This document shows positions 20 to 15,359 of a stretch of DNA of 24,956 nt, one piece after another. Source of the stretch: a virus (taxonomy: Duplodnaviria; Heunggongvirae; Uroviricota; Caudoviricetes); the IMG/VR virus record IMGVR_UViG_2923292180_000001; one strand, written 5' to 3'. Within the stretch, counting starts at the first letter, position 1; the number at the start of each line of letters is the position of its first letter. Made by a program: the position numbers and the translations under genes. The notes under the pieces are model-generated. The model did no database searches. It worked only from the letters and a program-made list of their open reading frames with translations, and had not been told where the DNA came from.

Positions 20-1315
20 TTAATTTTTCATTGCTTCGTTATGGGGCATGGTTGGGGCAAACTCGCTTAACTGTGTATTTAACAAAGCTACCTGTGCATT
101 ATTGTTTTCAGACATCCATTTTCCGTATACCTGAAATACCATTTGCGCATCTGCATGGCCCATCTGGTTTGCTATAAATGCCGGGTTAGCACCAGCTGTC
201 AGCGACCAGCAGGCATAAGTATGTCTCGACTGATATGATTTTCGATGGCGGAGTCCGGCACGTTTTATCGCTGCGTCCCACATCTGCCTTATTGAGTCAA
301 CGGTAAAATGGTCACCATAATTTTTTACTCTCGCTGACACTTCAGGTTGAAAAACAAAGGTGCATTTTTGTTTTTCTGTTCTGCCATACTCTCTGAGGTG
401 AACATCAATGATATGCTCTTTGCTCAGTCTCGTTAATGTCATCTGACTCCGGAGAGCGTCGATTGCTGGCTTAATAAGATGAATGACCCGATTGGTTCCC
501 GCCTGTGTTTTTGGTACCGTGAAACGGTCTTTTGCTAAATTTCTCCTGATCATCATTGTTCCATTTTTCAGATCTATGTCCTCCCATCCAAGTGCACACA
601 GCTCACCAGGGCGAACTCCAGTATAAACAGAAACACACCATAAATTTTTTGCTTGCTGATTTCTGCACGCATCGATAAGACGGATAAATTCTTCCCGCGA
701 AAGAGGATCCGGAATGGTTCTTGATTCCTTTAATGGCGAGATCCCCTTAAACGGATTATCTGCCAGGTAACCGTTATCAACACCAAACTGGAACACGGCG
801 TTAAGATTTGTCATGTAATTATTTACAGTTACAGCCGATCTCCCTGGTTGTGTAACAATATAGTTACTTTTGGGGATCTGGTATCCAGTCAGTAACTCTT
901 TACGAACCTCCAGTAATTTTTCTTTATTAATCGATGAGGCAAGATTTTTTTCACCGATTATGCTCAGGATATTTTTGATGACGGCACGGTATGTGTTGAG
1001 TGATGTTTTGGCGACTTCAGTTTCTTTCAGTGCCAGAAATTTTTCAGCCAGTTCTTTTATGGTTAAATCTTGTCGGGCCTCACCAAATTTTTCCAGATTG
1101 CGTGAGGAGGGAAACTGTTTTGCATAGTCGAAAACACCAGTTTTTATTGCGTAACAAACAGAGGAGCGTAGTTCACCTGCAACGCGCCTGTTTTTTGCTG
1201 TGTCAGGAACCCCCAGATTTTCCCTGACTCTTACGTCTTTATAAACAAACCAGATACGTAATTTCCCTCCATGGTTTTCCACGCCTGTCGGATATTTCAT
1301 TTCAACTTCTCTCAT
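20..1315 (-). CDS. Phage-type tyrosine integrase (site-specific recombinase), apparently full length
   Basis: 431-aa ORF at the prophage edge; C-terminal region has the R...H..R...Y pattern of tyrosine recombinases (..SRHTYACW..HADAQMVFQVYGKWM..); an excisionase-like gene lies immediately upstream on the same strand. Confidence 0.85.
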   Translation of the reverse strand: MREVEMKYPTGVENHGGKLRIWFVYKDVRVRENLGVPDTAKNRRVAGELRSSVCYAIKTGVFDYAKQFPSSRNLEKFGEARQDLTIKELAEKFLALKETEVAKTSLNTYRAVIKNILSIIGEKNLASSINKEKLLEVRKELLTGYQIPKSNYIVTQPGRSAVTVNNYMTNLNAVFQFGVDNGYLADNPFKGISPLKESRTIPDPLSREEFIRLIDACRNQQAKNLWCVSVYTGVRPGELCALGWEDIDLKNGTMMIRRNLAKDRFTVPKTQAGTNRVIHLIKPAIDALRSQMTLTRLSKEHIIDVHLREYGRTEKQKCTFVFQPEVSARVKNYGDHFTVDSIRQMWDAAIKRAGLRHRKSYQSRHTYACWSLTAGANPAFIANQMGHADAQMVFQVYGKWMSENNNAQVALLNTQLSEFAPTMPHNEAMKN

Positions 1316-1334
1316 TAGTTAGTGTGGCTTTTAG

Positions 1335-1586
1335 TCAAGTAAGATGACGTCTTGGTCTCGCTGATGCCTGGCGCTCAATCCAGCGATCAATTTCTTCCAG
1401 GTTGTAAAAGCATGGACTGTTATCCCATGGCATACCGTCATGAGCGACATGCTTATATTCCCTTCCTTCCATAAACGATTTTTCCCGGGCCTTTTTTAAC
1501 GTACCTTTTTTTATTCCTTTCAGCGCAATTAACTGCTCTTCGGATACCCATTTGCCGGGAGAGACAATCATGATTACTTCGCTCAT
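1335..1586 (-). CDS. Excisionase-like small DNA-binding protein
   Basis: 83-aa ORF 20 bp upstream of the integrase, same strand; basic; resembles lambdoid-prophage Xis-like proteins from memory (MSEVIMIV..GREYKHV..IDRWI). Confidence 0.6.
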   Translation of the reverse strand: MSEVIMIVSPGKWVSEEQLIALKGIKKGTLKKAREKSFMEGREYKHVAHDGMPWDNSPCFYNLEEIDRWIERQASARPRRHLT

Positions 1587-1658
1587 CGATTTCTTTATCT
1601 CTTACATCAGACGAGCGCCGGTTGCAGAATACCAGTCACAACCGGCGACAGTTGAACA

Positions 1659-3692
1659 TTAAGAATCAGCCTGACTCGGGATCAGTTTTTGCCAGATAAC
1701 TGAAACGTATTTTGCCTGGTAACGGGCGTCATCAAGTGCATTATGGCGCTCACCTTCGAATGGAATAGCCGTTCTGGCATCGAAGTCTATGGCTTTCCCC
1801 AGCTCAACGATTGTGCGTACATCGCGATCGTTGTAGTAACGCCACGGGCAGGGGATCCCCTGCCGTTCGTATGAACGGCGCAAAATCGTGTTGTCGAAGT
1901 TGGCTCCATTTCCCCAAACCTGAACAAAAAATTCACCGGAGTTTTCGTCGATAAATTCTCGCAATTGTAACAGTGCATCATCTAACGGGATTTCATCGGT
2001 CATAATGGCAGATTGCGCTTCGCGTGATTGCTTAAGCCACCATTTAATGGTGTCCCGATCAATGACTCCGCCAGCAGTTTCCAGATCGATAGTCTTACTA
2101 AATTCCGGTCCCATATCTCCGGTTTGCGGATCGAAAAATATTGCACCTATTGAGATGATCGGGGCATCAGGATTTTTTCCCATGGTTTCAAGGTCGATCA
2201 TTAGATGGTCACACGTCCTGCTGGTGGATGTGATTTCGTGATGACCGTTCACCTTAATTGGGTGATCTGCCGTCTCGCCAGTTTCATTATCGCTATTGTG
2301 ATGCTGATTGCCGCCAGTGTTCTCCTTGTGTGGATGTTCAGCGCCTTCCATTTCCTCCGGATCATCTTCCTGAACTTCAACCTGATACTCTTCATCGAAT
2401 GTTTCTTGGTATGTTGCGTCGCCCATCACCGCGCCACAATCAGGGCAGTTGCCGCCGCCGGTCTGACCGCAGGCGGTGCAGACTTTTTCCACTTCCTGTT
2501 GCGCTACTGGTTCAGGCTGTTTCGTTTCTGGCTCGTTTTGTAACGCATTTGGACTGTTTTGTTCCGCTTTTTGGTAGTTCCGTTCCGATTCATGCTGGTT
2601 CTGGTTCACAGAATCGCGGGTCTGGAGCCCCTTAACCCATTTCGGATCATTCGGGTCACTAATCCCTTCAACAAATTCACCACGTGATGCAGCAAGCAAC
2701 TTATCGGCGTCAGGCTGGCTGATATTGGCTGCCTGCATAATTTTGTTTACTTCGTCAGCGGTAACTTTTATCGGCTCTGGTTGTTCTGAATCTTCAGCGG
2801 TATCTACATTTTGCGGTAAGCCCGTGTATGTGCCATTTTTTCGGGCAAAATATTCTTCTTTTGTGATTTCAGTGGCGCCAGCAGCCAGTGCCTTATCCAG
2901 ACCAGAGAGTTTGTTTGCGCGACCGTATTTTTCTCCGTCCTTATCTGCGAAGAGGAAATAGAACGGCCCCTCACGCTCTACAGATGGTTCAGCTTCCGGC
3001 GCGGTTTCATTTTTTGGGATATCAGATACCTCAGTTTCCACTGCATCAGTTTGTGTTTCTGATGACTGGAGAACATCAACAGTGCCCAGGTCTGTTTCTT
3101 CATTCTCAAACACGCCCTTTGTCGTCAGGTATTCGCAGATATATTTGTTCAGTGCTACGGGATCTTTGTGAATGTCGATCGGACGCTCACGGACAAGGCC
3201 AAAAATAGTTTGGCGGTCGTAGCGAAGGGCATCAGGCTGTTTGCGCATTGATGCCGAGATACGCTTCCAGTCTTCGCGGTCGTTGTCGATAACTTCTTTT
3301 TTTGCCCAGCGATGGATGCTGCCGTCAATGTTTCCGGCATCCACATCACTAGGCCAGAGAGCGTAGGCCAGTTCGTCATCCAGTGTTTTCCATGTCTGCT
3401 TGTATTCGCGATGAATGGCAGCAATGACCGGGCTGATTTTTCCTGTTGAATTTTCAGTGTACTGTTGATTGGCTCTGGCGCGGGCGAGATCAACAACAGA
3501 CGTGTATTTTCCGGTTTCCTTGCGTTCACCTTCGCGACGTTTTTTCCAGATGCGCATCTCTGCCTGAATTTCGGGCCATTTAGCACCAGGAATACATTTA
3601 TGCTTAACCCACCCAATGGCGTGCAACTTAAGCTCCGGATACGGGTTATTCCCCTCTGAACAGGCGCGTAAGGACTGGCAAAACGCCCGCAA
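1659..3692 (-). CDS. RecE-like (exodeoxyribonuclease VIII-like) protein with C-terminal DEDDh (DnaQ-like) 3'-5' exonuclease domain
   Basis: 677-aa ORF. C-terminal region carries Exo I (MIDLETMG), Exo II (WGNGANFDNTIL) and Exo III (HNALDDARYQ) motifs; central acidic His-rich low-complexity linker; CxxC-x8-CxxC zinc ribbon (CTACGQTGGGNCPDCG); middle segment (DKLLAASRGEFVEGISDPNDPKWVKG) resembles RecE from memory. Confidence 0.75.
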   Translation of the reverse strand: MRAFCQSLRACSEGNNPYPELKLHAIGWVKHKCIPGAKWPEIQAEMRIWKKRREGERKETGKYTSVVDLARARANQQYTENSTGKISPVIAAIHREYKQTWKTLDDELAYALWPSDVDAGNIDGSIHRWAKKEVIDNDREDWKRISASMRKQPDALRYDRQTIFGLVRERPIDIHKDPVALNKYICEYLTTKGVFENEETDLGTVDVLQSSETQTDAVETEVSDIPKNETAPEAEPSVEREGPFYFLFADKDGEKYGRANKLSGLDKALAAGATEITKEEYFARKNGTYTGLPQNVDTAEDSEQPEPIKVTADEVNKIMQAANISQPDADKLLAASRGEFVEGISDPNDPKWVKGLQTRDSVNQNQHESERNYQKAEQNSPNALQNEPETKQPEPVAQQEVEKVCTACGQTGGGNCPDCGAVMGDATYQETFDEEYQVEVQEDDPEEMEGAEHPHKENTGGNQHHNSDNETGETADHPIKVNGHHEITSTSRTCDHLMIDLETMGKNPDAPIISIGAIFFDPQTGDMGPEFSKTIDLETAGGVIDRDTIKWWLKQSREAQSAIMTDEIPLDDALLQLREFIDENSGEFFVQVWGNGANFDNTILRRSYERQGIPCPWRYYNDRDVRTIVELGKAIDFDARTAIPFEGERHNALDDARYQAKYVSVIWQKLIPSQADS

Positions 3693-3711
3693 AAAACTCT
3701 CGAGGGCAAAG

Positions 3712-3882
3712 GTGAAGAAACCTGCTGTGGTTGATCCGGACCTTATCTGGTCATCACCTGACGGAGAAATACGTCGCTACGACAGTCGCCTAAACATAAT
3801 CTGTCGCGAGTGCCGGAAGAGCGAAGTTATGCAGCGCATACTGGCTTTCTATCAGGGTAATTTTCAGGACGTGGCGCAGTGA
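3712..3882 (+). CDS. Small hypothetical protein (about 56 aa from GTG at 3712), coupled to the downstream methyltransferase remnant
   Basis: Open frame 3616..3882; GTG at 3712 is the first start that does not overlap the divergent exonuclease gene; its stop TGA (3880-3882) overlaps the GTG start of the next ORF (GTGA). Start choice uncertain. Confidence 0.3.
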   Translation: MKKPAVVDPDLIWSSPDGEIRRYDSRLNIICRECRKSEVMQRILAFYQGNFQDVAQ

Positions 3883-4325
3883 GTGCACCGGCAACCATTC
3901 TTGATATGTGCTGTGGCAGCCGCATGTTCTGGTTCGATAAGTCTGACGAACGGGCGATATTCAGCGATATCAGAAAAGAAGGATACACATTACGCAATGG
4001 GAGACGCTTGATTATCAGCCCTGACATTATCGCAGATTTTCGTGCATTATCATTTGCAGACGCATCTTTTTCGATGGTTGTATTAGACCCTCCGCATCTT
4101 GAGAGTGTTGGTGATAACGCCTGGATGGGAAAGAAATATGGACGGCTGAATAAAGATGCCTGGCGTGATGATTCGCGACAGAGATTTAAAGAAGCCTTTC
4201 GGGTGTTGAGGCCGCACGGCGTTCTGATTTTTTAATGGAATGAAACGCAAATACCGGTAAGCCAGATTCTGGCACTGACAGACAGAAAACCTGTTATCTG
4301 TCAACGAACAGGGAAAAAACGATAA
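3879..4325 (+). pseudogene. SAM-dependent DNA methyltransferase remnant (DPPH motif) broken by an in-frame TAA
   Basis: 118-aa ORF with a glycine-rich SAM-binding-like segment (LDMCCGS) and catalytic-type motif VVLDPPHL; in-frame TAA at 4233-4235 is followed by 29 further sense codons (WNETQIPVSQILALTDRKPVICQRTGKKR) ending at 4325. Confidence 0.55.
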
Positions 4326-4497
4326 AACCCACTGGATTATTTTTATGAAAGAGGCATCCAGTGAGTAGATTCGTAAGGCTACAGATACGTATATCTGAAT
4401 AATTAAATTCAGTTCTGTAAATAAAATTTAATCCTTAACCGGATGGATTTCTGCACCCTCAGAACATCAGGAGGCCGCCCGAAAGGGCGGTAGTGAA

Positions 4498-4680
4498 ATG
4501 CGAAAGTTCAAAATTATTATTGAAACGGGAATAGCTGGTGGAGATTTTGAGGATGTATTCGAAGTGGACGATGACGCAACACCTGAGGAAATTCATGACG
4601 GAGCATAAGAAATTTTCTTTAACTACTGCAATTACTCATACCACGAAATAAAAGACGATGAGGAAGAACAAAGTGGCTGA
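4498..4680 (+). pseudogene. Short ORF broken by an in-frame TAA (35 codons, TAA, 23 codons); possible decayed prophage gene
   Basis: ATG 4498; MRKFKIIIETGIAGGDFEDVFEVDDDATPEEIHDGA, TAA at 4606-4608, then EIFFNYCNYSYHEIKDDEEEQSG and TGA at 4678-4680; preceded by AGGAGG plus an 18-nt GAAA-loop hairpin. Confidence 0.3.
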
Positions 4681-4845
4681 TTTTTGTTAAGCTAAATATA
4701 ACATCAGTTTTGAAGAGCGGGATGAACTATTAATGGACTATGGTGAGTTACGCGGTGGAAGTGCTGCTGATGTCGAATCCTAGCGTGATGACTATGAAGC
4801 GGGAAAAACTCCGGTCGAAGCATATTGTGATGAGTGGGGCGATGA

Positions 4846-5133
4846 ATGAGCGAGATTAATTATCAGGAAGGGCATGAAACGGCGGGGCAAGCAAAACCAG
4901 TGGCATGGCGATATCGCTACGTGAAAAAAGGCGTTACGGACTTTCAGGGGAAGTAGTGGTCTGGTGACTGGAAATATGTACCGAAAAAAGAGGATTGTAA
5001 CGACAGGCCGAACTATCAAATTCAGGCCTTATTCACTGCCTCACCAGTCCCAGTTACATCAGAAGAACTGGTTAAAGCTGTGCACTTTTATGAACAACTA
5101 AAACGCGAAAATCCACCAACATCCGGCAACTAG
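4846..5133 (+). pseudogene. Hypothetical prophage ORF (95 codons) broken by a single in-frame amber codon
   Basis: ATG 4846; 36 sense codons (MSEINYQEGHETAGQAKPVAWRYRYVKKGVTDFQGK), TAG at 4954-4956, then 58 sense codons in the same frame (WSGDWKYVPKKEDCNDRPNYQIQALF...ENPPTSGN) to TAG at 5131-5133. Confidence 0.4.
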
Positions 5134-5387
5134 ATTAATGGATTAACTATGTCGGTTAAACGACCAGCCAACTGAAAAAGCGGAAACCTGATTACAGGTT
5201 GCCAGATAAGGCAATGAGCTACCTGGCGCGGAACGGACTGATAAGTATGGGGAATGTTTTACGATGAACCTTTAGACTAAAGAGTTTGTAACGCTATGTA
5301 AGTGATTTTTTCTGGTTTAGATATTTATATGTCCGGCCAAATTGAGGTGTGTTTAAATGTAATTGCACATTGATTGTAGGAGGAATA

Positions 5388-5567
5388 ATGAAAAACGCAT
5401 TGCAGTTTTTGTTTGTTGCGTTCTGGTTGTTCGCATCATGTATGCCCATCATCTTCACAGCAAGGTATATGGAAAAAGTTGATGTTTTGATATTAATATT
5501 TGGATATATAAATGCCCTTTTTTTAGGGGTGTTCATGGCGGTCATGTGCATTGAATACTGGCGGTAA
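5388..5567 (+). CDS. Small hydrophobic protein (59 aa, two predicted transmembrane segments) in an AT-rich islet
   Basis: ATG 5388 preceded by SD-like TAGGAGGA at 5377-5384; product MKNALQFLFVAFWLFASCMPIIFTARYMEKVDVLILIFGYINALFLGVFMAVMCIEYWR; surrounding DNA is markedly AT-rich. Confidence 0.45.
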   Translation: MKNALQFLFVAFWLFASCMPIIFTARYMEKVDVLILIFGYINALFLGVFMAVMCIEYWR

Positions 5568-5840
5568 ATACAGCGAACTCCATTGGTTTAGTTGGATATT
5601 TACTGTGCTGGACAAAAACGGTTTGCGGGGAAATCTTAGTTAAGTAGAATGACTGCGGGTGCTTGAGGCTATCTGCCTCGGGCATGGACACCAACGGCAG
5701 ATAGAGAAAAGCCCCAGTTAACATTACGCGTCCTGCAAGACGCTTAACATTAATCTGAGGCCAATTTCATGCTAGACACATGTAGGTTAGCCTCTTACGT
5801 GCCGAAAGGCACGGAGAAGCAGGCTATTGTTAACACCAAG

Positions 5841-7458
5841 CTGTAATGTCCCCTTTGAACCATTCTAAAATGTCCCCAGACAATTCTCTGGGGGATTTTT
5901 CATGATCAAAGAGACTGTTACGATGAGTCATAAGGAACTCCACCGACTTCAGATTATTCAGGAACAAGCTGCGGCACGCATTGGCATTTCTATTCGGCAG
6001 GTTAAACGTCTGGTGCAACGGTATAGAAATGAAGGGCCTTCTGGTCTGGTTTCCCACCGACGTGGAAAGCGTCCTAATAATTCCTTTTCTACTGAATTCA
6101 GAGCAACAGTAATTTCACTCCTCAAAGGCCGTTACGCTGATTTTGGACCTACGTTTGCGTGCGAAAAATTGCGCGAGATACACGGTTTATCTTTATCCGT
6201 TGAAACTCTCAGAAAGTGGATGATAGAAGAGGGGTTATGGCGTGAACGCCGTCGTAAAATTGCCCGTATATATCAACGCCGCATGCGACGACCATCTTAC
6301 GGTGAACTGATCCAGATTGATGGCTCACCTCATGACTGGTTTGAAAATCGAGGCCCCAGATGTACACTGATCGTTTTCATTGATGATGCCACCAGTGCGT
6401 TGATGGCGTTGCGTTTTGTGCCTGCTGAAACAACCCGGGCTTACATGGAAACCCTCCGGGGTTACCTTAATGATCATGGCGTACCGCTCGCTCTCTACTC
6501 TGATAGACACAGTATATTCAGGGTAAATAACCCAGAGCGGGAAGGTGAGCTGACCCAGTTCACTCGTGCGATAAAGACACTGGGCATCGAGCCAATCCAT
6601 GCCAACAGCCCGCAGGCAAAAGGGCGGGTAGAGCGCGCCAATCAGACACTACAGGACAGGCTGGTCAAAGAAATGCGGCTTCAGAATATCAGTGATATTG
6701 AAACAGCAAATGCATGGTTGCCGACCTTTATTGAAGCCTATAACAACCGGTTCGCTACGTCGCCTCGTACTACTGATAATGCTCATCTTGATGTGCACCA
6801 TTCTGAAGAGGAACTGGGTTATATCTTCAGCCTACAGGCGAAGCGCGTTCTGTCTAAAAATCTCACTTTCCAGTACAAAAGCAGTGCGTTTCAGGTACGC
6901 AGTGAGGGCCGGGGATATCGACTTAGGCATTCGGTTGTTACTGTATGCGAGAACTTTGACGGTGAAATTAACGTTCTGTATGACGGGAAAGCGCTGGGCT
7001 GGGAAAAGTATGTTGATGGCCCGGAGCCTATACCACTGGATGATGAAAAGAGTGTCCATGAACGAGTGGATAATGCCCGTATTGATTTACGCTCAAAATA
7101 CTATGTTAAACCTAAAGCTGACCATCCCTGGCTTACGCGCCGAACGCAAAGTCATCAGCAAGTTAAGCCCCCGAAGTTACCTAAAAAGAAGCCTGATCCC
7201 GATAAAAAAGATTGAAACCAAGATCGATTCGGTTGAGTGCATATCCATTCATAGGGTAGATTCTTAAGTCGCGTTTCTGGTGTTCATTTTCGGGTGGTTT
7301 GTTACTTGTTTTACCGGGGATATGCCAGAAACGCGCTGAGTCAGTCTGGGCGGTGCGCGTAATGAGGCGTTATGGTAAATAGCCTATGCTAATGTCCGCT
7401 AAGAGCAAGAAGCGGAAGTTGGCAGTTTTGTGGACTGTCCCCACAAAAGTGACTACAG
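5841..7458 (+). mobile_element. Insertion sequence carrying the ISNCY-like transposase; boundaries approximate
   Basis: Single transposase ORF flanked by non-coding arms with short palindromes (CCCCAGA..TCTGGGG near 5875-5893; TTTGTGG..CCACAAA near 7427-7449). No convincing terminal inverted repeats or target duplication could be defined by eye. Confidence 0.3.
5902..7215 (+). CDS. DDE (rve-type) transposase, ISNCY/IS1202-like
   Basis: 437-aa ORF with N-terminal helix-turn-helix (ISIRQVKRLVQRY) and integrase-core signature (..DGSPHDWF.., ..YSDRHSIF.., ..SPQAKGRVERANQTLQD..). Family assignment is from memory. Confidence 0.75.
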   Translation: MIKETVTMSHKELHRLQIIQEQAAARIGISIRQVKRLVQRYRNEGPSGLVSHRRGKRPNNSFSTEFRATVISLLKGRYADFGPTFACEKLREIHGLSLSVETLRKWMIEEGLWRERRRKIARIYQRRMRRPSYGELIQIDGSPHDWFENRGPRCTLIVFIDDATSALMALRFVPAETTRAYMETLRGYLNDHGVPLALYSDRHSIFRVNNPEREGELTQFTRAIKTLGIEPIHANSPQAKGRVERANQTLQDRLVKEMRLQNISDIETANAWLPTFIEAYNNRFATSPRTTDNAHLDVHHSEEELGYIFSLQAKRVLSKNLTFQYKSSAFQVRSEGRGYRLRHSVVTVCENFDGEINVLYDGKALGWEKYVDGPEPIPLDDEKSVHERVDNARIDLRSKYYVKPKADHPWLTRRTQSHQQVKPPKLPKKKPDPDKKD

Positions 7459-7610
7459 AAATAGTTGCAATTCATAATTGATCATGGGTTGTCAGTTAAA
7501 CTCGTGGCGATTTAAATAGACTAATTGGGAGTGCGTCCATTACTTATATCTTGTAATGTTAACTATCAGAAATGATACAAAGATAATATGTCTTTAAAGA
7601 AAAGGCTGAT

Positions 7611-7637
7611 GGCGAAAAGTGGCCCGATGAGGGCCAC
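7611..7637 (-). terminator. Rho-independent terminator downstream of flxA
   Basis: Perfect 7-bp stem GTGGCCC/GGGCCAC (7619-7625, 7631-7637) with 5-nt loop, followed on the minus-strand transcript by UUUUCGCC; 15 bp beyond the flxA stop. Confidence 0.55.
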
Positions 7638-7651
7638 AATACGGCTGTCAC

Positions 7652-7984
7652 TTAGACGTAAATATCAATGGTGCCAGCGGTATTTGTATCGTCTTTTTTC
7701 TCTTCTTTTTTATCAGGCTGAACTGTCGCGTCTTCATTCTTTTTCTCTGCCTGCTGCCTTAACAACTGCTCCAGTTGAGCCCAGAGGCTTTCAATTTGCT
7801 TCTGTACCAATGCAGCCATTTCTTTTTTCTGCTGTGTCGTCATCCCCTCTTCCGATGAGATTTTCCCAAGCTTTTCAGTCAGCACCTGAATTTGTCTTGT
7901 GATTTTGGCTATTTCTGATGTTCCTTCCGGGGCGGAGTTGTTTGAAATAACGGTTGAGGTATTTCCCTGAATTGTGACAGACAT
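7652..7984 (-). CDS. flxA: FlxA (sigma-28-dependent prophage protein)
   Basis: 110-aa product MSVTIQGNTSTVISNNSAPEG...TIDIYV recognised as FlxA; a canonical sigma-28 promoter lies immediately upstream. Confidence 0.9.
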   Translation of the reverse strand: MSVTIQGNTSTVISNNSAPEGTSEIAKITRQIQVLTEKLGKISSEEGMTTQQKKEMAALVQKQIESLWAQLEQLLRQQAEKKNEDATVQPDKKEEKKDDTNTAGTIDIYV

Positions 7985-8006
7985 AGATTTCTCCTTTTAA
8001 AAAAGC

Positions 8007-8033
8007 ACTATCGGCATGCACAAAAAAATCTTT
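8007..8033 (-). promoter_or_regulatory. Sigma-28 (FliA) promoter of flxA
   Basis: Minus-strand sequence TAAAGATT-N11-GCCGATAG (-35 at 8026-8033, -10 at 8007-8014) matches the FliA consensus TAAAGTTT-N11-GCCGATAA with correct spacing; sits 23-49 bp upstream of the flxA ATG. Confidence 0.75.
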
Positions 8034-8186
8034 AATCGTATTTCTTGTGTCATTAATTGTTTGATGTTCAGATTGTTTTCCTCGCGGGCTGGCGCGCCTC
8101 AGAAAGTAAAGCTTGTTGACAGGGGTAAACGTTCGGCAATAATTTTCTGCCGCATGCGGGTGTTGCATAAAACGTGTTACGTTCCT

Positions 8187-8492
8187 TTATCGACAGGTCA
8201 GGTCACCGCTCACCCGCCGACGAGAAAGCAACACTGACATGCTAAAGCAAAAAATAGATGAATAAGTTGAGTTGTGCATATGTAGCCTGACCGTCACAAA
8301 GTATATGGTGTCTGTACCAGTAAGATGATGGCCGGACTCTTTAAAAACGAGCTGACCTGCACAATACAGGATGGACTTAGCAATGGCTGCTCCTGGCACA
8401 AAGCGGACAGTGATCACCGTTCTTACGACTACTTTCTGACTTCCTTCGTGACTTGCCCTAAGCATGTTGTAGTGCGATACTTGTAATGACAT
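8187..8492 (-). CDS. ydfV: Hypothetical prophage protein YdfV-like (101 aa)
   Basis: ORF of the length and position expected between flxA and relB in Qin; its start codon overlaps the relB operator, so the true start and expression are uncertain. Confidence 0.45.
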   Translation of the reverse strand: MSLQVSHYNMLRASHEGSQKVVVRTVITVRFVPGAAIAKSILYCAGQLVFKESGHHLTGTDTIYFVTVRLHMHNSTYSSIFCFSMSVLLSRRRVSGDLTCR

Positions 8493-8504
8493 TTGTAATT
8501 ACAA
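8481..8504 (+). promoter_or_regulatory. relBE operator (relO-like inverted hexad repeats)
   Basis: TTGTAATgacaTTTGTAATTACAA immediately upstream of the relB SD and ATG (8517); the TTGTAAT/ATTACAA repeats are those of the RelB-RelE operator. Confidence 0.6.
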
Positions 8505-8516
8505 GAGGTGTAAGAC

Positions 8517-8756
8517 ATGGGTAGCATTAACCTGCGTATTGACGATGAACTTAAAGCGCGTTCTTACGCCGCGCTTGAAAAAATGGGTGTAACTCCTTCT
8601 GAAGCGCTTCGTCTCATGCTCGAGTATATCGCTGACAATGAACGCTTGCCGTTCAAACAGACACTCCTGAGTGATGAAGATGCTGAACTTGTGGAGATAG
8701 TGAAAGAACGGCTTCGTAATCCTAAGCCAGTACGTGTGACGCTGGATGAACTCTGA
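8517..8756 (+). CDS. relB: RelB antitoxin
   Basis: 79-aa product MGSINLRIDDELKARSYAALEKMGVTPSEALRLMLEYIADNERLPF... recognised as RelB; stop overlaps relE start (TGATG). Confidence 0.95.
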   Translation: MGSINLRIDDELKARSYAALEKMGVTPSEALRLMLEYIADNERLPFKQTLLSDEDAELVEIVKERLRNPKPVRVTLDEL

Positions 8757-9043
8757 TGGCGTATTTTCTGGATTTTGACGAGCGGGCACTAAAGGAATGG
8801 CGAAAGCTGGGCTCGACGGTACGTGAACAGTTGAAAAAGAAGCTGGTTGAAGTACTTGAGTCACCCCGGATTGAAGCAAACAAGCTCCGTGGTATGCCTG
8901 ATTGTTACAAGATTAAGCTCCGGTCTTCAGGCTATCGCCTTGTATACCAGGTTATAGACGAGAAAGTTGTCGTTTTCGTGATTTCTGTTGGGAAAAGAGA
9001 ACGCTCGGAAGTATATAGCGAGGCGGTCAAACGCATTCTCTGA
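8756..9043 (+). CDS. relE: RelE mRNA interferase toxin
   Basis: 95-aa product MAYFLDFDERALKEWRKLGSTVREQLKKKLVEVLESPRIEANKLRG... recognised as RelE; translationally coupled to relB. Confidence 0.95.
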   Translation: MAYFLDFDERALKEWRKLGSTVREQLKKKLVEVLESPRIEANKLRGMPDCYKIKLRSSGYRLVYQVIDEKVVVFVISVGKRERSEVYSEAVKRIL

Positions 9044-9114
9044 ACCAAAGCATGACATCTCTGTTTCGCACCGAAGGTGACACTTCTGCTTTGCGTTGAC
9101 AGGAGAAGCAGGCT

Positions 9115-9270
9115 ATGAAGCAGCAAAAGGCGATGTTAATCGCCCTGATCGTCATCTGTTTAACCGTCATAGTGACGGCACTGGTAACGAGGAAAGACCT
9201 CTGCGAGGTACGAATCCGAACCGGCCAGACGGAGGTCGCTGTCTTCACAGCTTACGAACCTGAGGAGTAA
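9115..9270 (+). CDS. hokD: Hok-family membrane toxin HokD (RelF); below the ORF-track size cutoff
   Basis: 51-aa ORF MKQQKAMLIALIVICLTVIVTALVTRKDLCEVRIRTGQTEVAVFTAYEPEE: single transmembrane segment plus conserved Hok C-terminus; immediately downstream of relE. Confidence 0.85.
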   Translation: MKQQKAMLIALIVICLTVIVTALVTRKDLCEVRIRTGQTEVAVFTAYEPEE

Positions 9271-9339
9271 GAGACCCGGCGGGGGAGAAATCCCTCGCCA
9301 CCTCTGATGTGGCAGGCATCCTCAACGCACCCGCACTTA

Positions 9340-9370
9340 ACCCGCTTCGGCGGGTTTTTGTTTTTATTTT
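9340..9370 (+). terminator. Rho-independent terminator of the relB-relE-hokD operon
   Basis: AACCCGC-TTCG-GCGGGTT hairpin followed by TTTTGTTTTTATTTT, about 70 bp after the hokD stop. Confidence 0.7.
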
Positions 9371-9486
9371 CAACGCGTTTGAAGTTCTGGACGGTGCCGG
9401 AATAGAATCAAAAATACTTAAGTAGCGCGCAGGGATAAGAGGGATGGTCCCTTAAAGGGGAGAGCTAATTATCCGGAAGGATTCTG

Positions 9487-9738
9487 ATGATGAACATCGA
9501 AGAACTGCGTAAAATTTTTTGTGAAGATGGCCTCTATGCTGTGTGCGTTGAAAATGGAAATCTTGTTAGTCATTACCGCATTATGTGTTTGCGAAAGAAT
9601 GGGGCTGCGTTAATTAATTTTGTGGATGCTCGGGTCACGGACGGATTTATCTTGCGCGAAGGTGAGTTTGTCACTTCATTACAGGCATTGAAAGAGATCG
9701 GAATAAAAGCTGGCTTTTCTGCTTTTTCAGGAGAATAA
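9487..9738 (+). CDS. rem: Rem (prophage protein, 83 aa)
   Basis: Product MMNIEELRKIFCEDGLYAVCVENGNLVSHYRIMCLRKNGAALINFVD... matches Rem from memory in length and position between hokD and ydfU. Confidence 0.75.
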   Translation: MMNIEELRKIFCEDGLYAVCVENGNLVSHYRIMCLRKNGAALINFVDARVTDGFILREGEFVTSLQALKEIGIKAGFSAFSGE

Positions 9739-9804
9739 ACTCATCTACAATCTTGCGCGGGGCTGAACTCCCGCTGAGTAACACCGTGCCACCGGAGAAA
9801 ACCG

Positions 9805-10083
9805 ATGGCACGCAACGCAAAATATTACAATTCTGATAATTCGCCCGTTCTTGCCTGCACGCACGGGCGGTATTCTCACGCATTCAAGTCTGAATGGTTC
9901 CAGCACCCTCCATGCACTGCAGAACAGGCCGAATGGCTGATTCATTCTTACCGCAGGCGCGGGTTCGAGGTTAAGAAAGCTCTCAGTCTCGACTATCGGC
10001 ACTGGATAATCTCTGTCAGGCTGCCTTATTCCGAACGCCCACCACGTGCGTCCCGCACTTTCCAGCAACGGATCTGGAGGTAA
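9805..10083 (+). CDS. Hypothetical 92-aa protein between rem and ydfU
   Basis: ATG 9805 with upstream GGAGAAAA; its TAA stop (10081-10083) lies inside the SD (GGAGGT) of ydfU, 1 nt before the ydfU GTG start. No recognisable domain. Confidence 0.4.
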   Translation: MARNAKYYNSDNSPVLACTHGRYSHAFKSEWFQHPPCTAEQAEWLIHSYRRRGFEVKKALSLDYRHWIISVRLPYSERPPRASRTFQQRIWR

Positions 10084-10084
10084 C

Positions 10085-11134
10085 GTGCGGGTATTACTTA
10101 GACCTGTTCTGGTGCCTGAGCTTGGGCTGGTGGTCCTTAAGCCGGGCCGTGAATCCATACAGATATTTCATAATCCTCGAGTGCTGGTGGAACCGGAACC
10201 AAAAAGCATGCGTAATCTGCCATCCGGAGTCGTTCCTGCCGTTCGCCAGCCGCTGGCGGAAGACAAAACATTGCTGCCGTTTTTTAGTAACGAACGGGTG
10301 ATTCGTGCTGCTGGCGGCGTTGGCGCATTGTCCGACTGGCTATTACGTCATGTTACATCCTGCCAGTGGCCTAATGGCGATTACCATCACACTGAAACAG
10401 TCATTCACCGTTATGGTACCGGCGCAATGGTGTTGTGCTGGCACTGCGACAACCAACTGCGTGACCAGACATCGGAATCACTGGAGCTGCTTGCTCAACA
10501 AAATCTGACAGCATGGGTGATTGACGTCATCCGTCACGCAATAAGCGGTACGCAGGAGCGGGAATTATCTTTGGCTGAATTATCCTGGTGGGCGGTCTGC
10601 AATCAGGTGGTGGATGCACTACCTGAGGCTGTATCGCGTCGTTCGCTGGGATTACCAGCGGAAAAAATCTGCTCGGTGTACCGCGAAAGCGACATCGTAC
10701 CGGGAGAGCAGACCGCCACCAGCATATTGAAACAACGCACAAAAAATCTTGCACCGTTGCCTTACGCCCACCAGCAACAAAAATCACCACAGGAAAAGAC
10801 GGTGGTAAGCATCACCGTTGATCCAGAGTCTCCGGAATCTTTCATGAAGCTGCCTAAACGTCGCCGCTGGGTTAAGGAGAAATACACACGTTGGGTTAAG
10901 ACACAGCCGTGTGCTTGCTGCGGTATGCCAGCCGACGATCCGCATCATCTGATTGGTCACGGGCAGGGCGGAATGGGAACAAAAGCACATGATCTCTTTG
11001 TGTTGCCTTTGTGCAGAAAGCATCACAACGAGCTGCATACGGATACAGTGGCATTTGAAGATAAGTATGGCTCCCAACTGGAGCTGATATTTCGTTTTAT
11101 CGATCGCGCGCTGGCAATTGGCGTACTGGCGTAA
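10085..11134 (+). CDS. ydfU: YdfU (DUF968-family protein with C-terminal Cys/His cluster)
   Basis: GTG 10085 preceded by GGAGGT gives 349 aa (the ORF-track frame extends to GTG 10046); C-terminus has CACCGMPADDPHHLIGHGQGGMGTKAHDLFVLPLCRKHHNELH. Confidence 0.8.
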   Translation: MRVLLRPVLVPELGLVVLKPGRESIQIFHNPRVLVEPEPKSMRNLPSGVVPAVRQPLAEDKTLLPFFSNERVIRAAGGVGALSDWLLRHVTSCQWPNGDYHHTETVIHRYGTGAMVLCWHCDNQLRDQTSESLELLAQQNLTAWVIDVIRHAISGTQERELSLAELSWWAVCNQVVDALPEAVSRRSLGLPAEKICSVYRESDIVPGEQTATSILKQRTKNLAPLPYAHQQQKSPQEKTVVSITVDPESPESFMKLPKRRRWVKEKYTRWVKTQPCACCGMPADDPHHLIGHGQGGMGTKAHDLFVLPLCRKHHNELHTDTVAFEDKYGSQLELIFRFIDRALAIGVLA

Positions 11135-11147
11135 GTGGAGAACGAGC

Positions 11148-11900
11148 ATGAACCTTGAAGCCTTACCAAAATATTACTCCCCAAAATCTCCAAAATTGAG
11201 CGATGACGCTCCAGCGACAGGCACCGGTTGTTTAACAATTACGGATGTAATGGCAGCGCAGGGGATGGTGCAGTCGAAAGCACCACTTGGGTTGGCCTTA
11301 TTTCTGGCAAAAGTTGGTGTTCAGGACCCTCAGTTTGCGATTGAAGGCCTGCTAAATTACGCGATGGCACTGGATAACCCGACATTGAACAAATTGAGTG
11401 AAGAAATCCGGTTACAGATTATTCCTTACCTCGTGAGTTTTGCCTTTGCTGATTACTCCAGGTCTGCGGCAAGTAAGGCTCGCTGTGAGCATTGTTCAGG
11501 TACGGGATTTTATAATGTATTGCGCGAAGTGGTGAAACACTACAGACGCGGGGAATCTGTAATCAAGGAAGAATGGGTGAAGGAACTATGTCAGCATTGC
11601 CATGGTAAGGGCGAAGCCAGCACAGCGTGCAGAGGGTGTAAGGGTAAAGGGATTGTTCTGGATGAAAAAAGAACCCGGTTTCATGGCGTACCGGTATATA
11701 AGATTTGTGGGCGTTGTAATGGAAACCGGTTTAGTCGTTTACCGACCACGCTGGCACGACGTCATGTCCAGAAGCTGGTACCAGACCTGACCGATTATCA
11801 GTGGTATAAGGGGTATGCGGACGTCATTGGTAAACTGGTAACAAAGTGCTGGCAGGAAGAAGCATACGCGGAAGCGCAATTGAGGAAGGTGACGAGATAA
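11148..11900 (+). CDS. quuQ: Late-gene antitermination protein Q
   Basis: 250 aa from ATG 11148 (ORF frame opens at 11118); Cys/His-rich zinc-finger region (CEHCSGTG..CQHCHGKG..CRGCKGKG..CGRCNG); lies upstream of a PR'-like promoter and terminator. Confidence 0.85.
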   Translation: MNLEALPKYYSPKSPKLSDDAPATGTGCLTITDVMAAQGMVQSKAPLGLALFLAKVGVQDPQFAIEGLLNYAMALDNPTLNKLSEEIRLQIIPYLVSFAFADYSRSAASKARCEHCSGTGFYNVLREVVKHYRRGESVIKEEWVKELCQHCHGKGEASTACRGCKGKGIVLDEKRTRFHGVPVYKICGRCNGNRFSRLPTTLARRHVQKLVPDLTDYQWYKGYADVIGKLVTKCWQEEAYAEAQLRKVTR

Positions 11901-11930
11901 ATGATTTTTGCTGAAGATGGCGACATGATG

Positions 11931-11960
11931 TTTGCATTTTTCAAAAAATATGGATAAAAT
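11931..11960 (+). promoter_or_regulatory. Late promoter PR'-like element with downstream pause/qut-like CAACGATGGG
   Basis: TTTGCA (-35, 11931-11936), 18-bp spacer, TAAAAT (-10, 11955-11960), followed by TTTTCAACGATGGG, which closely parallels the lambda PR' initial transcribed region (...TGACTCAACGATGGG). Confidence 0.55.
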
Positions 11961-12005
11961 TTTTTCAACGATGGGCTTTGTATACCCGACGTTAAGAAAA
12001 AGTAG

Positions 12006-12034
12006 AAAACCCGCTGATGAGCGGGTTTTGTGCT
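12006..12034 (+). terminator. tR'-like rho-independent terminator downstream of the late promoter
   Basis: AAAACCCGCT-gatg-AGCGGGTTTTGTGC: 6-bp GC-rich stem with a T-run, about 50 nt downstream of the putative PR' start. Confidence 0.65.
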
Positions 12035-12321
12035 TTAAATGGGGCAATGGTAATGTTGAATCTCATCCCGGGACTCATGTCTGTTAACTTATTATTTAGC
12101 TGGTGACTTGGTTATTTGCCTGATGTTTAAAATGTTTTCTTCCAGTACAATGTCCCTAAACACAATGAGTCTGCTTATTATATTATTAGCAGAGCTATTA
12201 CGGCCAAAGTACAGCATAAGCTTTTAAAGCCAATCAACCAGTCATCAAGACAGACGGGGTTATTCATAAAAACTCTCCATGTGTGATCCGATGGGGCCTG
12301 AAATTAAAGCTTTAATATAGC

Positions 12322-12534
12322 TCATGAAAGGTAAACATTGGCAGCTGAAGGGCCACGCAGACCATTTATCCGGCAAAATTCCACGCGTAATCCGGTGGTA
12401 ATTTCTTCTGCATCGCGGAGATTGAGCGCTGAAACATGAAGCTGGACATCGATACGACCATCGGATGGGGTGATAAGACCCTTGCCGCTTTTGCCGTCAA
12501 AGGTTTTGACAATTCCTGTCATTTTACGGGACAA
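12322..12534 (-). CDS. cspF: Cold-shock-like protein CspF
   Basis: 70-aa product [70 protein letters not shown]; divergent from cspB. Confidence 0.9.
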
Positions 12535-12684
12535 AAAAATTCCTTAATACTGATAACTTGGCGCACTATACACACGTTCCTGAAGAAAGCTATAGTTTTT
12601 TGATGGGGTTGAAGATGGCTGGATGTCTAAAATAAACATTGCTTCATATGTTCAACTATGCGTTAATGATTGCGTCGGTTTGAA

Positions 12685-12834
12685 GAACAGACGATATACG
12701 AAGTAGTTTACTAAAGCAGTTCTCATTTCAGGTGTTATTCACTTATTCCTTCTTTGAGTCTCTCCAATTAAGTACGAAGTCGTTTCTGTTATGCAAACCA
12801 TTTATGCCGAAAGGCTCAAGTTAAGGAATGTAGA
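12685..12834 (+). promoter_or_regulatory. cspB 5' untranslated leader with cold-box-like element and cspA-type upstream box
   Basis: AACAGACGATATACGAAGTAGTTTACTAAAGCAG resembles the cspA cold box (TGACGTACAGACCATTAAAGCAG); GCCGAAAGGC lies just upstream of the SD (AAGGAATG) before the cspB ATG, as in cspA. Recalled from memory, not aligned. Confidence 0.4.
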
Positions 12835-13050
12835 ATGTCAAATAAAATGACTGGTTTAGTAAAATGGTTTAACGCTGATAAAGGTTTCGGCTTTATTTCT
12901 CCTGTTGATGGTAGTAAAGATGTGTTTGTGCATTTTTCTGCGATTCAGAATGATAATTATCGAACCTTATTTGAAGGTCAAAAGGTTACCTTCTCTATAG
13001 AGAGTGGTGCTAAAGGTCCTGCAGCAGCAAATGTCATCATTACTGATTAA
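12835..13050 (+). CDS. cspB: Cold-shock protein CspB
   Basis: 71-aa product [71 protein letters not shown] with RNP1/RNP2 motifs. Confidence 0.95.
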
Positions 13051-13331
13051 AATTCATCGCTCGTCTGTATACGATAACGAAGAAGGCTGATGCCTGAGTA
13101 GAGATACGGACAGAGTAGTGAATATTGGATCTCTTTAATAAAAAGTAAGGAGGTCCAATACATGAAACAATGGCTAGCATATTTGGCAAAATCTTAATCA
13201 GGAAAAGTATGCTAACCATTGTGGTGAAGTGCAGGTTTGCTGCATGAATAGTTTTACAGCAGAAGCTAACTGCTGGCATGGCAAAACAAAGTGCGTAAGT
13301 GGATGACTCCCACAAAAAGCACCACAATCTC

Positions 13332-13357
13332 AAACCCGCTCAGGCGGGTTTTTTATT
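13332..13357 (+). terminator. Hairpin terminator between cspB region and the convergent small zinc-ribbon gene
   Basis: AAACCCGC-TCAG-GCGGGTTTTTTATT; strong on the plus strand, weaker but possible for the minus-strand gene ending at 13414. Confidence 0.5.
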
Positions 13358-13413
13358 ATCTGCTTTAAATATATTATTAAAATATAAAAAATACTTGTTA
13401 CTAATAAAATCAA

Positions 13414-13584
13414 TCAGGCTACAGCTTTAAGATTTGTCTGGAATACTTTGTTGCAATGAGGGCAGATCAAAAGGGCACCTTTTTGTACTCTTGAAAAACT
13501 GTGTTCTGACTCTTGGGTGCAGTTTGGGCAGGAACATTTAACGAGATAATTACGGCGTGATTTTGAGTTTTTACGTTCTGACAT
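13414..13584 (-). CDS. Small zinc-ribbon protein (56 aa, two CxxC pairs); possibly YnfU-like
   Basis: ATG at 13584 with upstream AGGAAAAG; product MSERKNSKSRRNYLVKCSCPNCTQESEHSFSRVQKGALLICPHCNKVFQTNLKAVA (CPNC...CPHC). Gene name is a guess from memory. Confidence 0.5.
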   Translation of the reverse strand: MSERKNSKSRRNYLVKCSCPNCTQESEHSFSRVQKGALLICPHCNKVFQTNLKAVA

Positions 13585-13803
13585 AGGCTTTTCCTGTATA
13601 AATGGCCGTATACAGTACACTAAATATGAAAACATTTCTCGTATTATTATTTTATATATGACTTTCTTTCAAAATAATTACCCACATTTTTAATGTGTAT
13701 GTTTTTTTAGCGCCGTTGAGAACAACGTGTGCTGTCAAAACTCCCCCGTAGACTCCGATCTTTTCAAACATATTGCACCATCCGTGTACATCGGGGTGAG
13801 GAT

Positions 13804-14019
13804 ATGAAATCAATGGATAAGTTAACAACAGGTGTTGCCTATGGCACATCGGCGGGTAATGCTGGTTTCTGGGCATTGCAGTTACTCGATAAAGTAACTC
13901 CGTCACAGTGGGCTGCAATCGGTGTGCTGGGTAGCCTGGTTTTTGGCCTGCTGACGTATCTGACAAATCTTTATTTCAAGATTAAAGAAGACAGGCGTAA
14001 GGCTGCGAGAGGAGAGTAA
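13804..14019 (+). CDS. essQ: Class II holin (phage 21 S21 pinholin type) with dual-start motif
   Basis: 71 aa from ATG 13804 ([10 protein letters not shown]..., second Met at codon 4 as in holin/antiholin dual starts); two transmembrane segments and charged C-terminus ([13 protein letters not shown]). Confidence 0.85.
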
Positions 14020-14023
14020 TCCA

Positions 14024-14331
14024 ATGACTCAAGACTATGAACTGGTTGTGAAAGGAGTCCGTAATTTTGAGAATAAAGTTACGGTAACTGTAGCCTTACA
14101 GGACAAAGAACGCTTTGACGGTGAAATTTTTGACCTGGATGTCGCCATGGACCGTGTTGAAGGAGCTGCGCTGGAGTTTTATGAGGCAGCAGCCAGAAGG
14201 AGCGTCCGGCAAGTCTTCCTGGAAGTAGCAGAAAAATTGTCAGAAAAAGTTGAGTCTTATCTGCAGCATCAGTACTCCTTTAAGATTGAAAATCCTGCCA
14301 ATAAGCACGAGCGTCCTCATCATAAATATCT

Positions 14332-14335
<4 letters not shown>
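14024..14335 (+). CDS. ydfR: YdfR (DUF1327 prophage protein, 103 aa)
   Basis: Sits between holin and endolysin; stop overlaps the endolysin start (ATGA). Confidence 0.75.

Positions 14336-15359
<1,024 letters not shown>

Follow-up and report, generated by a model that had tools for sequence, protein, structure and literature searches.

A small nin-region gene of the phrog_1212 family between rem and ydfU in the Qin prophage of Escherichia coli and its likely translational coupling to ydfU

What is the open reading frame that fills the space between rem and ydfU in the Qin cryptic prophage of E. coli: a protein-coding gene, a leader of the gene that follows, or a chance interval devoid of stop codons? 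The window in which this question arises, i.e., the whole stretch of 24,956 nucleotides analysed here, was identified as Qin in reverse orientation, its positions 7031–14389 being 99.97% identical to MG1655 1,640–1,647 kb, and its genes follow one another in the order relB, relE, hokD, rem, the 92-aa ORF, ydfU, ydfT (a homologue of the Q antiterminator), cspF and cspB. The upstream neighbor rem (9487–9738, + strand; PGAP/MG1655 annotation) encodes the antirepressor of DicA in Qin (PMC10448788), and the downstream partner ydfU (10085–11134, + strand) encodes a 349-aa DUF968 protein, as indicated by its annotation and by a match to Pfam PF06147 (E 1.4e-76), that belongs to the His-Me finger nucleases (His-Me finger group 7; PMC5714182). 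Rem being an antirepressor, the ORF sits between a regulator and a nuclease–Q pair. Beyond positions 7031–14389 no collinear alignment of the window with the MG1655 Qin is obtained, and for the 1179–7031 region just short blocks match it (728–1179 and 3364–3642); the left part of the prophage is apparently arranged differently in the source strain and in MG1655. In E. coli W an ISNCY transposase fragment is found near ydfW.

The ORF extends from the ATG at 9805 to the TAA at 10081–10083 and is open throughout (CDS 9805–10083, stop included, + strand, as given in the ORF list). Its initiation triplet lies 66 nt after the end of rem (9738) and is preceded, at a distance of 7 nt, by a Shine–Dalgarno-like GGAG (9794–9797, + strand, read from the sequence) that is kept as GGAG or AGAG among the variants, whereas its termination triplet is embedded in GGAGGTAAcGTG, which also contains the GTG start of ydfU at 10085. 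The original prediction, which had described an ORF with its own SD sequence, starting 66 bp past rem and ending within the ydfU ribosome-binding site, is therefore confirmed in all these elements by the sequence. The same prediction had called the ORF unannotated, and this holds for the curated MG1655 record NC_000913.3, in which the 346 bp between rem and ydfU carry no feature whatsoever, but not for other genomes, in which PGAP calls a hypothetical protein; thus, the identical ORF is WP_012304870.1 in E. coli W and an 84%-identical version is WP_010917803.1 in O157:H7. At least 1000 contigs encode the exact 92-aa protein, which goes by names that include “hypothetical protein” and “Prophage protein”, and 4312 of the 5426 complete E. 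coli genomes carry the DNA region, with one to seven copies each. What is missing in one curated genome is the annotation, and no new kind of element is involved, since thousands of other genomes already list the gene as a predicted “hypothetical protein”. Small prophage genes that are hypothetical or lack an annotation abound, so that a finding of this kind is in itself unsurprising; yet MG1655, whose annotation is the reference of bacteriology, lacks a gene kept by selection and found in ~80% of complete E. coli genomes, and its addition alters the reading of the 346-bp “intergenic” region, which is relevant to the studies that treat this region as an untranslated Rho-terminator leader.

Evidence that the frame is translated into a protein of selective value comes from its evolution. 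In a collection of ~250 homologous loci gathered from species genomes and viral contigs the frame is intact (92 or 90 aa) in 245, and the variation in length consists of whole codons and is confined to the N-terminal part, an 89-aa form being also present among database proteins. Selection statistics computed on the 100 distinct nucleotide versions of the ORF yielded codon-position entropies of 0.25, 0.26 and 0.60 for positions 1, 2 and 3, respectively, a pooled pN/pS of 0.27 and a median pairwise dN/dS of 0.20 over the whole ORF, with abundant synonymous change (pS 0.36), the other five frames giving 0.29–1.75 as against 0.20 in the sense frame. Constraint is unevenly distributed along the protein: dN/dS is 0.45 over the N-terminal 28 codons, 0.11 over the core (residues 29–92) and 0.05 over the last 20 codons; since pS still amounts to 0.25 in this last segment, the C-terminus is constrained as protein and does not correspond to simply frozen DNA. 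To judge from these sequence comparisons, the ORF is a genuine protein-coding small phage gene under purifying selection. The earlier suggestion of a real gene is thus borne out by a frame that in homologous prophages is conserved, not lost, and changes with a bias for synonymous substitutions. Frameshifts or stops break the ORF only in E. coli ECMA0423 and ECGI0523 (L011 and L013, genome_contigs) among the ~250 loci, and these two look like decaying prophage copies.

To which family does the product belong? An hmmscan against PHROGs assigns it to phrog_1212 (E 1.7e-35, 121.9 bits), residues 27–92 covering profile positions 1–66 of 66, so that the protein consists of a conserved core of ~66 aa (residues 27–92) preceded by a variable, disordered N-terminal extension (residues 1–26). 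A profile search of 1.84 billion representative proteins returned 75 matches, mostly proteins of 66 aa, which align from their residue 2 onward to positions 28–92 of the 92-aa ORF. Homologues of ~66 aa occur in phages of Salmonella, Klebsiella, Yersinia, Erwinia, Hafnia and Edwardsiella, with a core identity of 35–50% across genera; the members include Gifsy-2, SPN3UB, mEp237, mEp460_ev081, PY54, phiES15, Chris1, GF-2, Pocitis76, vB_EhrS_59 and several Klebsiella phages, and those found in characterised or inducible phages all carry the label “hypothetical protein”. The family consensus reads MKxxWFxHxxxTxEQAxELxxRYRxRGxxxxKxLSxDxxxWxVSVxLPESxxxPRxSRxYQQRIW[RG], and five residues (F32, Y49, L73, P74 and W91) are invariant or nearly so throughout the family (alignments A2 and A3). 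On the other hand, the His and Cys residues that the original prediction had mentioned, together with Trp, in describing the product do not constitute a conserved motif; C18 and C37 are not kept across the wider family.

The 92-aa ORF is, on the strength of this homology, the Escherichia (Qin-type) variant of a broader family of Enterobacterales temperate phages. It shares with the 66-aa phrog_1212 proteins (Gifsy-2 STM1021.1n, mEp237 gp51, SPN3UB_0061, PY54 ORF47 and phiES15_017) the F, Y, LP and W residues and the QQRIW[RG] tail, as well as a slot just upstream of a nuclease and Q and a stop placed equally tightly against the next start. Unlike its relatives, the Escherichia form has Phe27-Lys28 in place of Met-Lys, starts 26 codons further upstream, precedes DUF968 instead of NinG, RusA or YbcO, and follows the antirepressor gene rem instead of DUF1367. 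An internal start near residue 27, that would fit the 66-aa relatives, was considered and discarded, no in-frame ATG, GTG or TTG being read in the sequence after codon 1 and up to the core, and M1 of the 92-aa form is invariant. The ancestral start has disappeared in the Escherichia lineage, where an upstream ATG contributes the poorly constrained, disordered 26-aa N-terminus.

The structure predicted by AlphaFold2 from an alignment of 48 sequences has a mean pLDDT of 79, which rises to 93–96 over residues 31–70 and falls below 50 at residues 7–10 and 12–18. The predicted fold is a compact β-α-β-β domain, with strands at 28–33, 56–60 and 67–75 and a helix at 39–52, followed by an extended basic tail; the invariant Phe is located in strand 1, the Tyr in the helix, the Leu-Pro pair after strand 3 and the Trp near the C-terminus. 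The basic C-terminal tail (PRxSRT[FY]QQRIWR) is strongly conserved. Pfam-A (E up to 1) and NCBIfam (E up to 0.1) gave no match for the ORF, NinE, NinF and NinH being among the families covered, nor did the PADLOC anti-phage defence HMMs for the ORF, YdfU, Rem or a 66-aa relative; the best hit of a profile search against PDB sequences (E 0.47) is noise and Foldseek found nothing below E 0.17 in the PDB. The sole Foldseek match among viral structures is “Orf QD1” of N15 (32% identity), a homologue that offers no clue to function. With low confidence, a role within the phage recombination/nuclease module, either accessory or in nucleic-acid binding, might be envisaged.

The gene is regularly placed immediately before the recombination-nuclease slot of its phage and before Q. 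In the order rem–ORF–ydfU (DUF968)–ydfT (Q) the ORF occupies the nin slot upstream of a nuclease and Q, as do its relatives in Gifsy-2, mEp237, SPN3UB, GF-2, phiES15 and Chris1; the ORF belongs to the lambdoid “nin” region, which extends from the replication/immunity genes to the late antiterminator Q, and phrog_1212, which is not in Pfam, is among the most regularly placed unknowns of this region and thereby a reasonable target for functional work. The downstream gene, on the other hand, varies. In ~58 Klebsiella-type viral contigs it encodes RusA, with the junction TGGAGG-TGA-(A/T)T-GTG; in Gifsy-2, SPN3UB and GF-2 it encodes NinG/Rap after a gap of 1–2 nt; in mEp237 it is YbcO/DUF1364 after a gap of 2 nt; in one more locus (L318) it gives a weak, sub-threshold match to YbcO; in Chris1 RusA is followed by DUF968, and in Erwinia the next gene is a cytosine methyltransferase. 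The idea of a dedicated two-gene unit made of a protein of obscure function and its DUF968 partner is thus too narrow, relatives preceding NinG, RusA, YbcO/DUF1364 or a cytosine methyltransferase. As to whether DUF968 genes elsewhere have a similar upstream partner, this is the case in two loci (L307 and L309), in which the small gene is joined to DUF968 by an ATGA or TGATG overlap and which are independent recurrences of the coupling geometry, but not in mEp460, Stx2a_WGPS2 and YeP2, where the gene before DUF968 encodes a KilA-N protein, nor in Klebsiella phage 1 LV-2017, where it is an unannotated RusA-like ORF. Within the phage collection DUF968 is present in 186 records and the full-length 92-aa form in just 20, in agreement with the 20 records that encode a YdfU with at least 60% identity to that of the window. 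Tight pairing is therefore fixed within the Qin-type module and is a property of the small-gene family, whose W-R/G-stop end also provides the next gene with its SD, and of the packing of the nin region. The RusA-like ORF of Klebsiella phage 1 LV-2017 (locus L329; KY271401.1, 1057–1434), recognised by eye (MKLTLPFPPSVNSYWR...), is 125 aa long, lies in a 400-bp gap and appears to be a gene missed in the GenBank record.

How intimate is the connection with ydfU? The 3′ end of the ORF reads TGG AGG TAA C GTG (10073–10087, + strand), in which the junction GGAGG-TAA-C-GTG occupies 10076–10087 according to the sequence and to the ydfU coordinates of PGAP and MG1655. The ydfU Shine–Dalgarno GGAGG (10076–10080) is encoded by the last two sense codons of the ORF (Trp-Arg) and the GTG at 10085 is found 1 nt past the TAA and 4 nt past GGAGG. 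All the E. coli-type loci examined share TGGAGG TAA N GTG without variation, the N-terminus of ydfU coming next. Ribosomes finishing the 92-aa ORF would deliver or unmask the ydfU start, and this geometry makes translational coupling between the two cistrons moderately likely, with the proviso that genes of nin regions are as a rule tightly packed, their SDs being embedded, and that geometry alone therefore does not prove a functional dependency. A hairpin is also predicted over the ydfU start (10052–10091, + strand), in which codons 83–87 of the ORF (CCCGCAC.UUCCAG) would pair with the ydfU SD and GTG (CUGGAG...GUGCGGG). The model recurs in nearly all of 45 variants, with 97.4% of the cells paired; its stability (MFE −21.1 kcal/mol, z −1.4) is not significant and the covariation analysis revealed no compensatory change, every shuffle doing as well, so that this structure is offered as a prediction.

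A second RNA structure involves the start of the ORF itself. RNA folding and covariation point to a hairpin over its initiation region (9785–9812, + strand) with a 7-bp stem (9785–9791/9806–9812) that contains the UG of the AUG and a 14-nt loop that contains the SD. Its stability (−16.4 kcal/mol, z −4.3) is equalled by none of 200 shuffles and, over 33 distinct upstream variants, 99.1% of the cells are paired. Two pairs are compensatory (C-G → U-A and U-A → C-G), one of them making use of the synonymous GCA/GCG of Ala2, the other changes are compatible with wobble pairing, and the covariation score observed is reached by no shuffle. Both double changes occur in the same three Qin-type sequences, which makes the support moderate, and the two pairs may reflect a single event in one lineage. 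Such a hairpin would hold the start of the ORF closed, and translation would probably be poor unless something opens it. In the same spacer, 19 nt past the rem stop, lies a G+C-rich 6-bp hairpin (GCGGGG-cugaac-uCCCGC; 9757–9774, + strand) without a T-run, and the 92-nt spacer comprising both hairpins folds better than its shuffles (z −3.2).

The interval upstream of ydfU is also known from studies of transcription termination. An RT-qPCR analysis found the terminator that precedes ydfU to be one of the strongest Rho-dependent ones in MG1655 (PMC9160355), and the array and RNA-seq data compiled in the same study (table, Fig. S1) indicate that ydfU goes up by 1.4–2.8 under bicyclomycin and in nusG and rho mutants, rem being unchanged (−0.5 to +0.5; PMC9160355). 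Since ydfU rises and rem does not, the termination zone lies after rem; the published data locate termination within ~1.2 kb, from an assumed transcription start to a probe inside ydfU, and not specifically within the ORF (PMC9160355). A stretch with more C than G (9740–10100, + strand) coincides with the ORF and represents a candidate Rho utilisation/termination zone upstream of ydfU; here the GC skew ranges from −0.02 to −0.30 in all windows of the scan but one (0.00), as opposed to the flanks, with values of +0.23 to +0.40 over rem and of +0.21 for the first ydfU window. This skew fits a scheme in which the resident prophage translates the ORF poorly and Rho loads and terminates there: in a lysogen-like state of K-12 the untranslated C-rich RNA of the ORF would be where Rho terminates, thereby keeping ydfU and the Q homologue ydfT silent. 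A search for evidence of expression in K-12 (Ribo-seq, proteomics) retrieved none, a literature search finding no paper on ydfU and ribosome profiling, and the PIRT-Seq and Stringer supplements contained nothing at coordinates 16443xx/16445xx nor under ydfU; the lack of a start-site entry at these coordinates fits silencing and is no proof of translation.

In phage lambda the terminators tR2–tR4 lie in the nin region and nin-region terminators make the expression of Q dependent on antitermination. A C-rich ORF placed immediately upstream of ydfU and two genes before a Q homologue resembles this arrangement, as well as that of Rho-silenced cryptic-prophage genes, although no lambda nin terminator is known to be located inside a conserved ORF having a structured start. 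It is conceivable, albeit rather improbable in our estimate, that in Qin-type lambdoid phages the translation of the small gene gates the commitment to late-gene expression. With the start hairpin closed, the C-rich ORF RNA would be free of ribosomes and Rho would stop transcription before ydfU and Q; were the hairpin to open through the action of a factor, of temperature or of upstream translation, ribosomes would cover the rut region and hand over to ydfU through the embedded SD, and transcription could then reach Q. If this were true, the conserved Trp-Arg/Gly-stop C-terminus would be under dual selection, as a protein tail and as an SD.

Three other explanations must be weighed against that of a genuine gene. 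The interval could be noncoding, i.e., a chance open frame in the 5′ leader/Rho-terminator region of ydfU, or the real gene could be the 137-aa ORF of the opposite strand (9745–10158, minus strand); the empty curated MG1655 annotation, the earlier treatment of the region as a terminator zone upstream of ydfU and the very presence of this long antisense ORF speak in favor of such a reading, to which we attach almost no credence, as the comparative sequence data appear to have effectively refuted it already. Indeed, the antisense ORF displays a pN/pS of 1.3 in its own frame and is ruled out as a gene, compared with the dN/dS of 0.20 of the sense frame, the indels are exclusively frame-preserving with nearly all loci intact, protein homologues exist across genera and the fold is confidently predicted. 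A regulatory leader cistron is another possibility, in which just the act of translating the ORF matters, gating ydfU and Q via coupling and Rho polarity, and the peptide is functionless. The ydfU SD embedded in the last codons with its 1-nt spacer, the conserved hairpin over the ORF's own start and the overlap with the Rho-sensitive zone would all be accounted for, and a precedent exists in orf45-anrP of the related prophage Gifsy-1, at whose isrK locus translation of orf45 is required for that of anrP and initiation of orf45 is controlled by RNA structure (PMC4825925). The 92-aa ORF resembles orf45 in being a small upstream prophage ORF whose stop abuts or overlaps the next start; the coupling of orf45 to anrP is experimental, whereas for rem–ORF–ydfU, where no trans-acting sRNA is known, coupling is deduced from geometry and a predicted hairpin. 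Furthermore, the purely regulatory orf45 conserves nucleotides and not amino acids (PMC4825925), a pattern that the 92-aa ORF, conserved as a protein, does not follow in view of its dN/dS (0.20 overall and 0.11 in the core, where the amino acid sequence is strongly constrained) and of its pS of 0.36. A confidently folded domain of 66 aa would be superfluous in a uORF that served regulation alone, and in this case the fold-forming core is kept at 35–50% identity across genera before unrelated downstream genes; a mere leader function is consequently judged quite improbable.

Finally, the 92-aa protein could be the dedicated partner of the adjacent nuclease (DUF968, YbcO or the junction resolvases), as a specificity, inhibitor or immunity subunit. 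A DNA nuclease (DUF968, YbcO/DUF1364, RusA or NinG/Rap) is encoded by the next gene in nearly all contexts sampled, and the protein is basic (pI 10.2) with a conserved Arg/aromatic tail. However, the downstream nucleases have unrelated folds, which makes one specific partner unlikely, some members precede a methyltransferase or genes of unknown function, many DUF968 genes are found without the small gene, the samples are phylogenetically non-independent and the conserved gene order of the nin region explains the pattern equally well; we hold this partnership to be unlikely, if somewhat less so than the leader cistron. Overall, the explanation that we favor with considerable confidence is that of a genuine nin-region gene of the phrog_1212 family, with the coupling, the closed start and the Rho zone proposed above as its less certain parts. 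What is added here, namely the fixed pre-nuclease place of the 66-aa core family, the start hairpin and the coincidence with the Rho zone, constitutes a set of leads and not of demonstrated mechanisms.

Upstream of rem, in the gap that separates it from hokD, positions 9279–9360 (+ strand) match, below threshold, the Rfam model of isrK, an sRNA of Salmonella Gifsy-1; the match spans the full length of the model (25.1 bits vs a gathering score of 50; E 0.0014–0.006) and ends in a strong intrinsic terminator (stem 9339–9356 followed by a T-run). The isrK gene of Gifsy-1 immediately precedes an antirepressor operon, as the match in the window immediately precedes rem, itself an antirepressor gene; equally possibly, the match may be merely the structured 3′ end of the hokD mRNA, and it was set aside as sub-threshold. 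A LexA box of the type preceding the Gifsy antirepressor genes was sought near rem and not found, the matches being at chance level, and a scan of the locus for promoters and terminators gave counts not above those of shuffles, the promoter-like site at 9724–9751 remaining unsupported.

Two observations concern related phages. In Gifsy-1 the late antiterminator gene antQ is the last of a four-gene operon, SL2582–SL2579 (PMC4825925, supporting information); by analogy with Gifsy-2, where the order is DUF1367, 66-aa gene, NinG and Q, this operon may contain a member of phrog_1212. In mEp460_ev081 (LR597641.1) positions 36605–36880 carry a 92%-identical copy of the 92-aa gene, at a place where the reference mEp460 (NC_019716.1) has the KilA-N gene; mEp460_evo81 being an active phage endowed with Qin-like dicB, dicF, dicAC and rem (PMC10448788), this copy points to a circulation of the Qin-type module among live phages.
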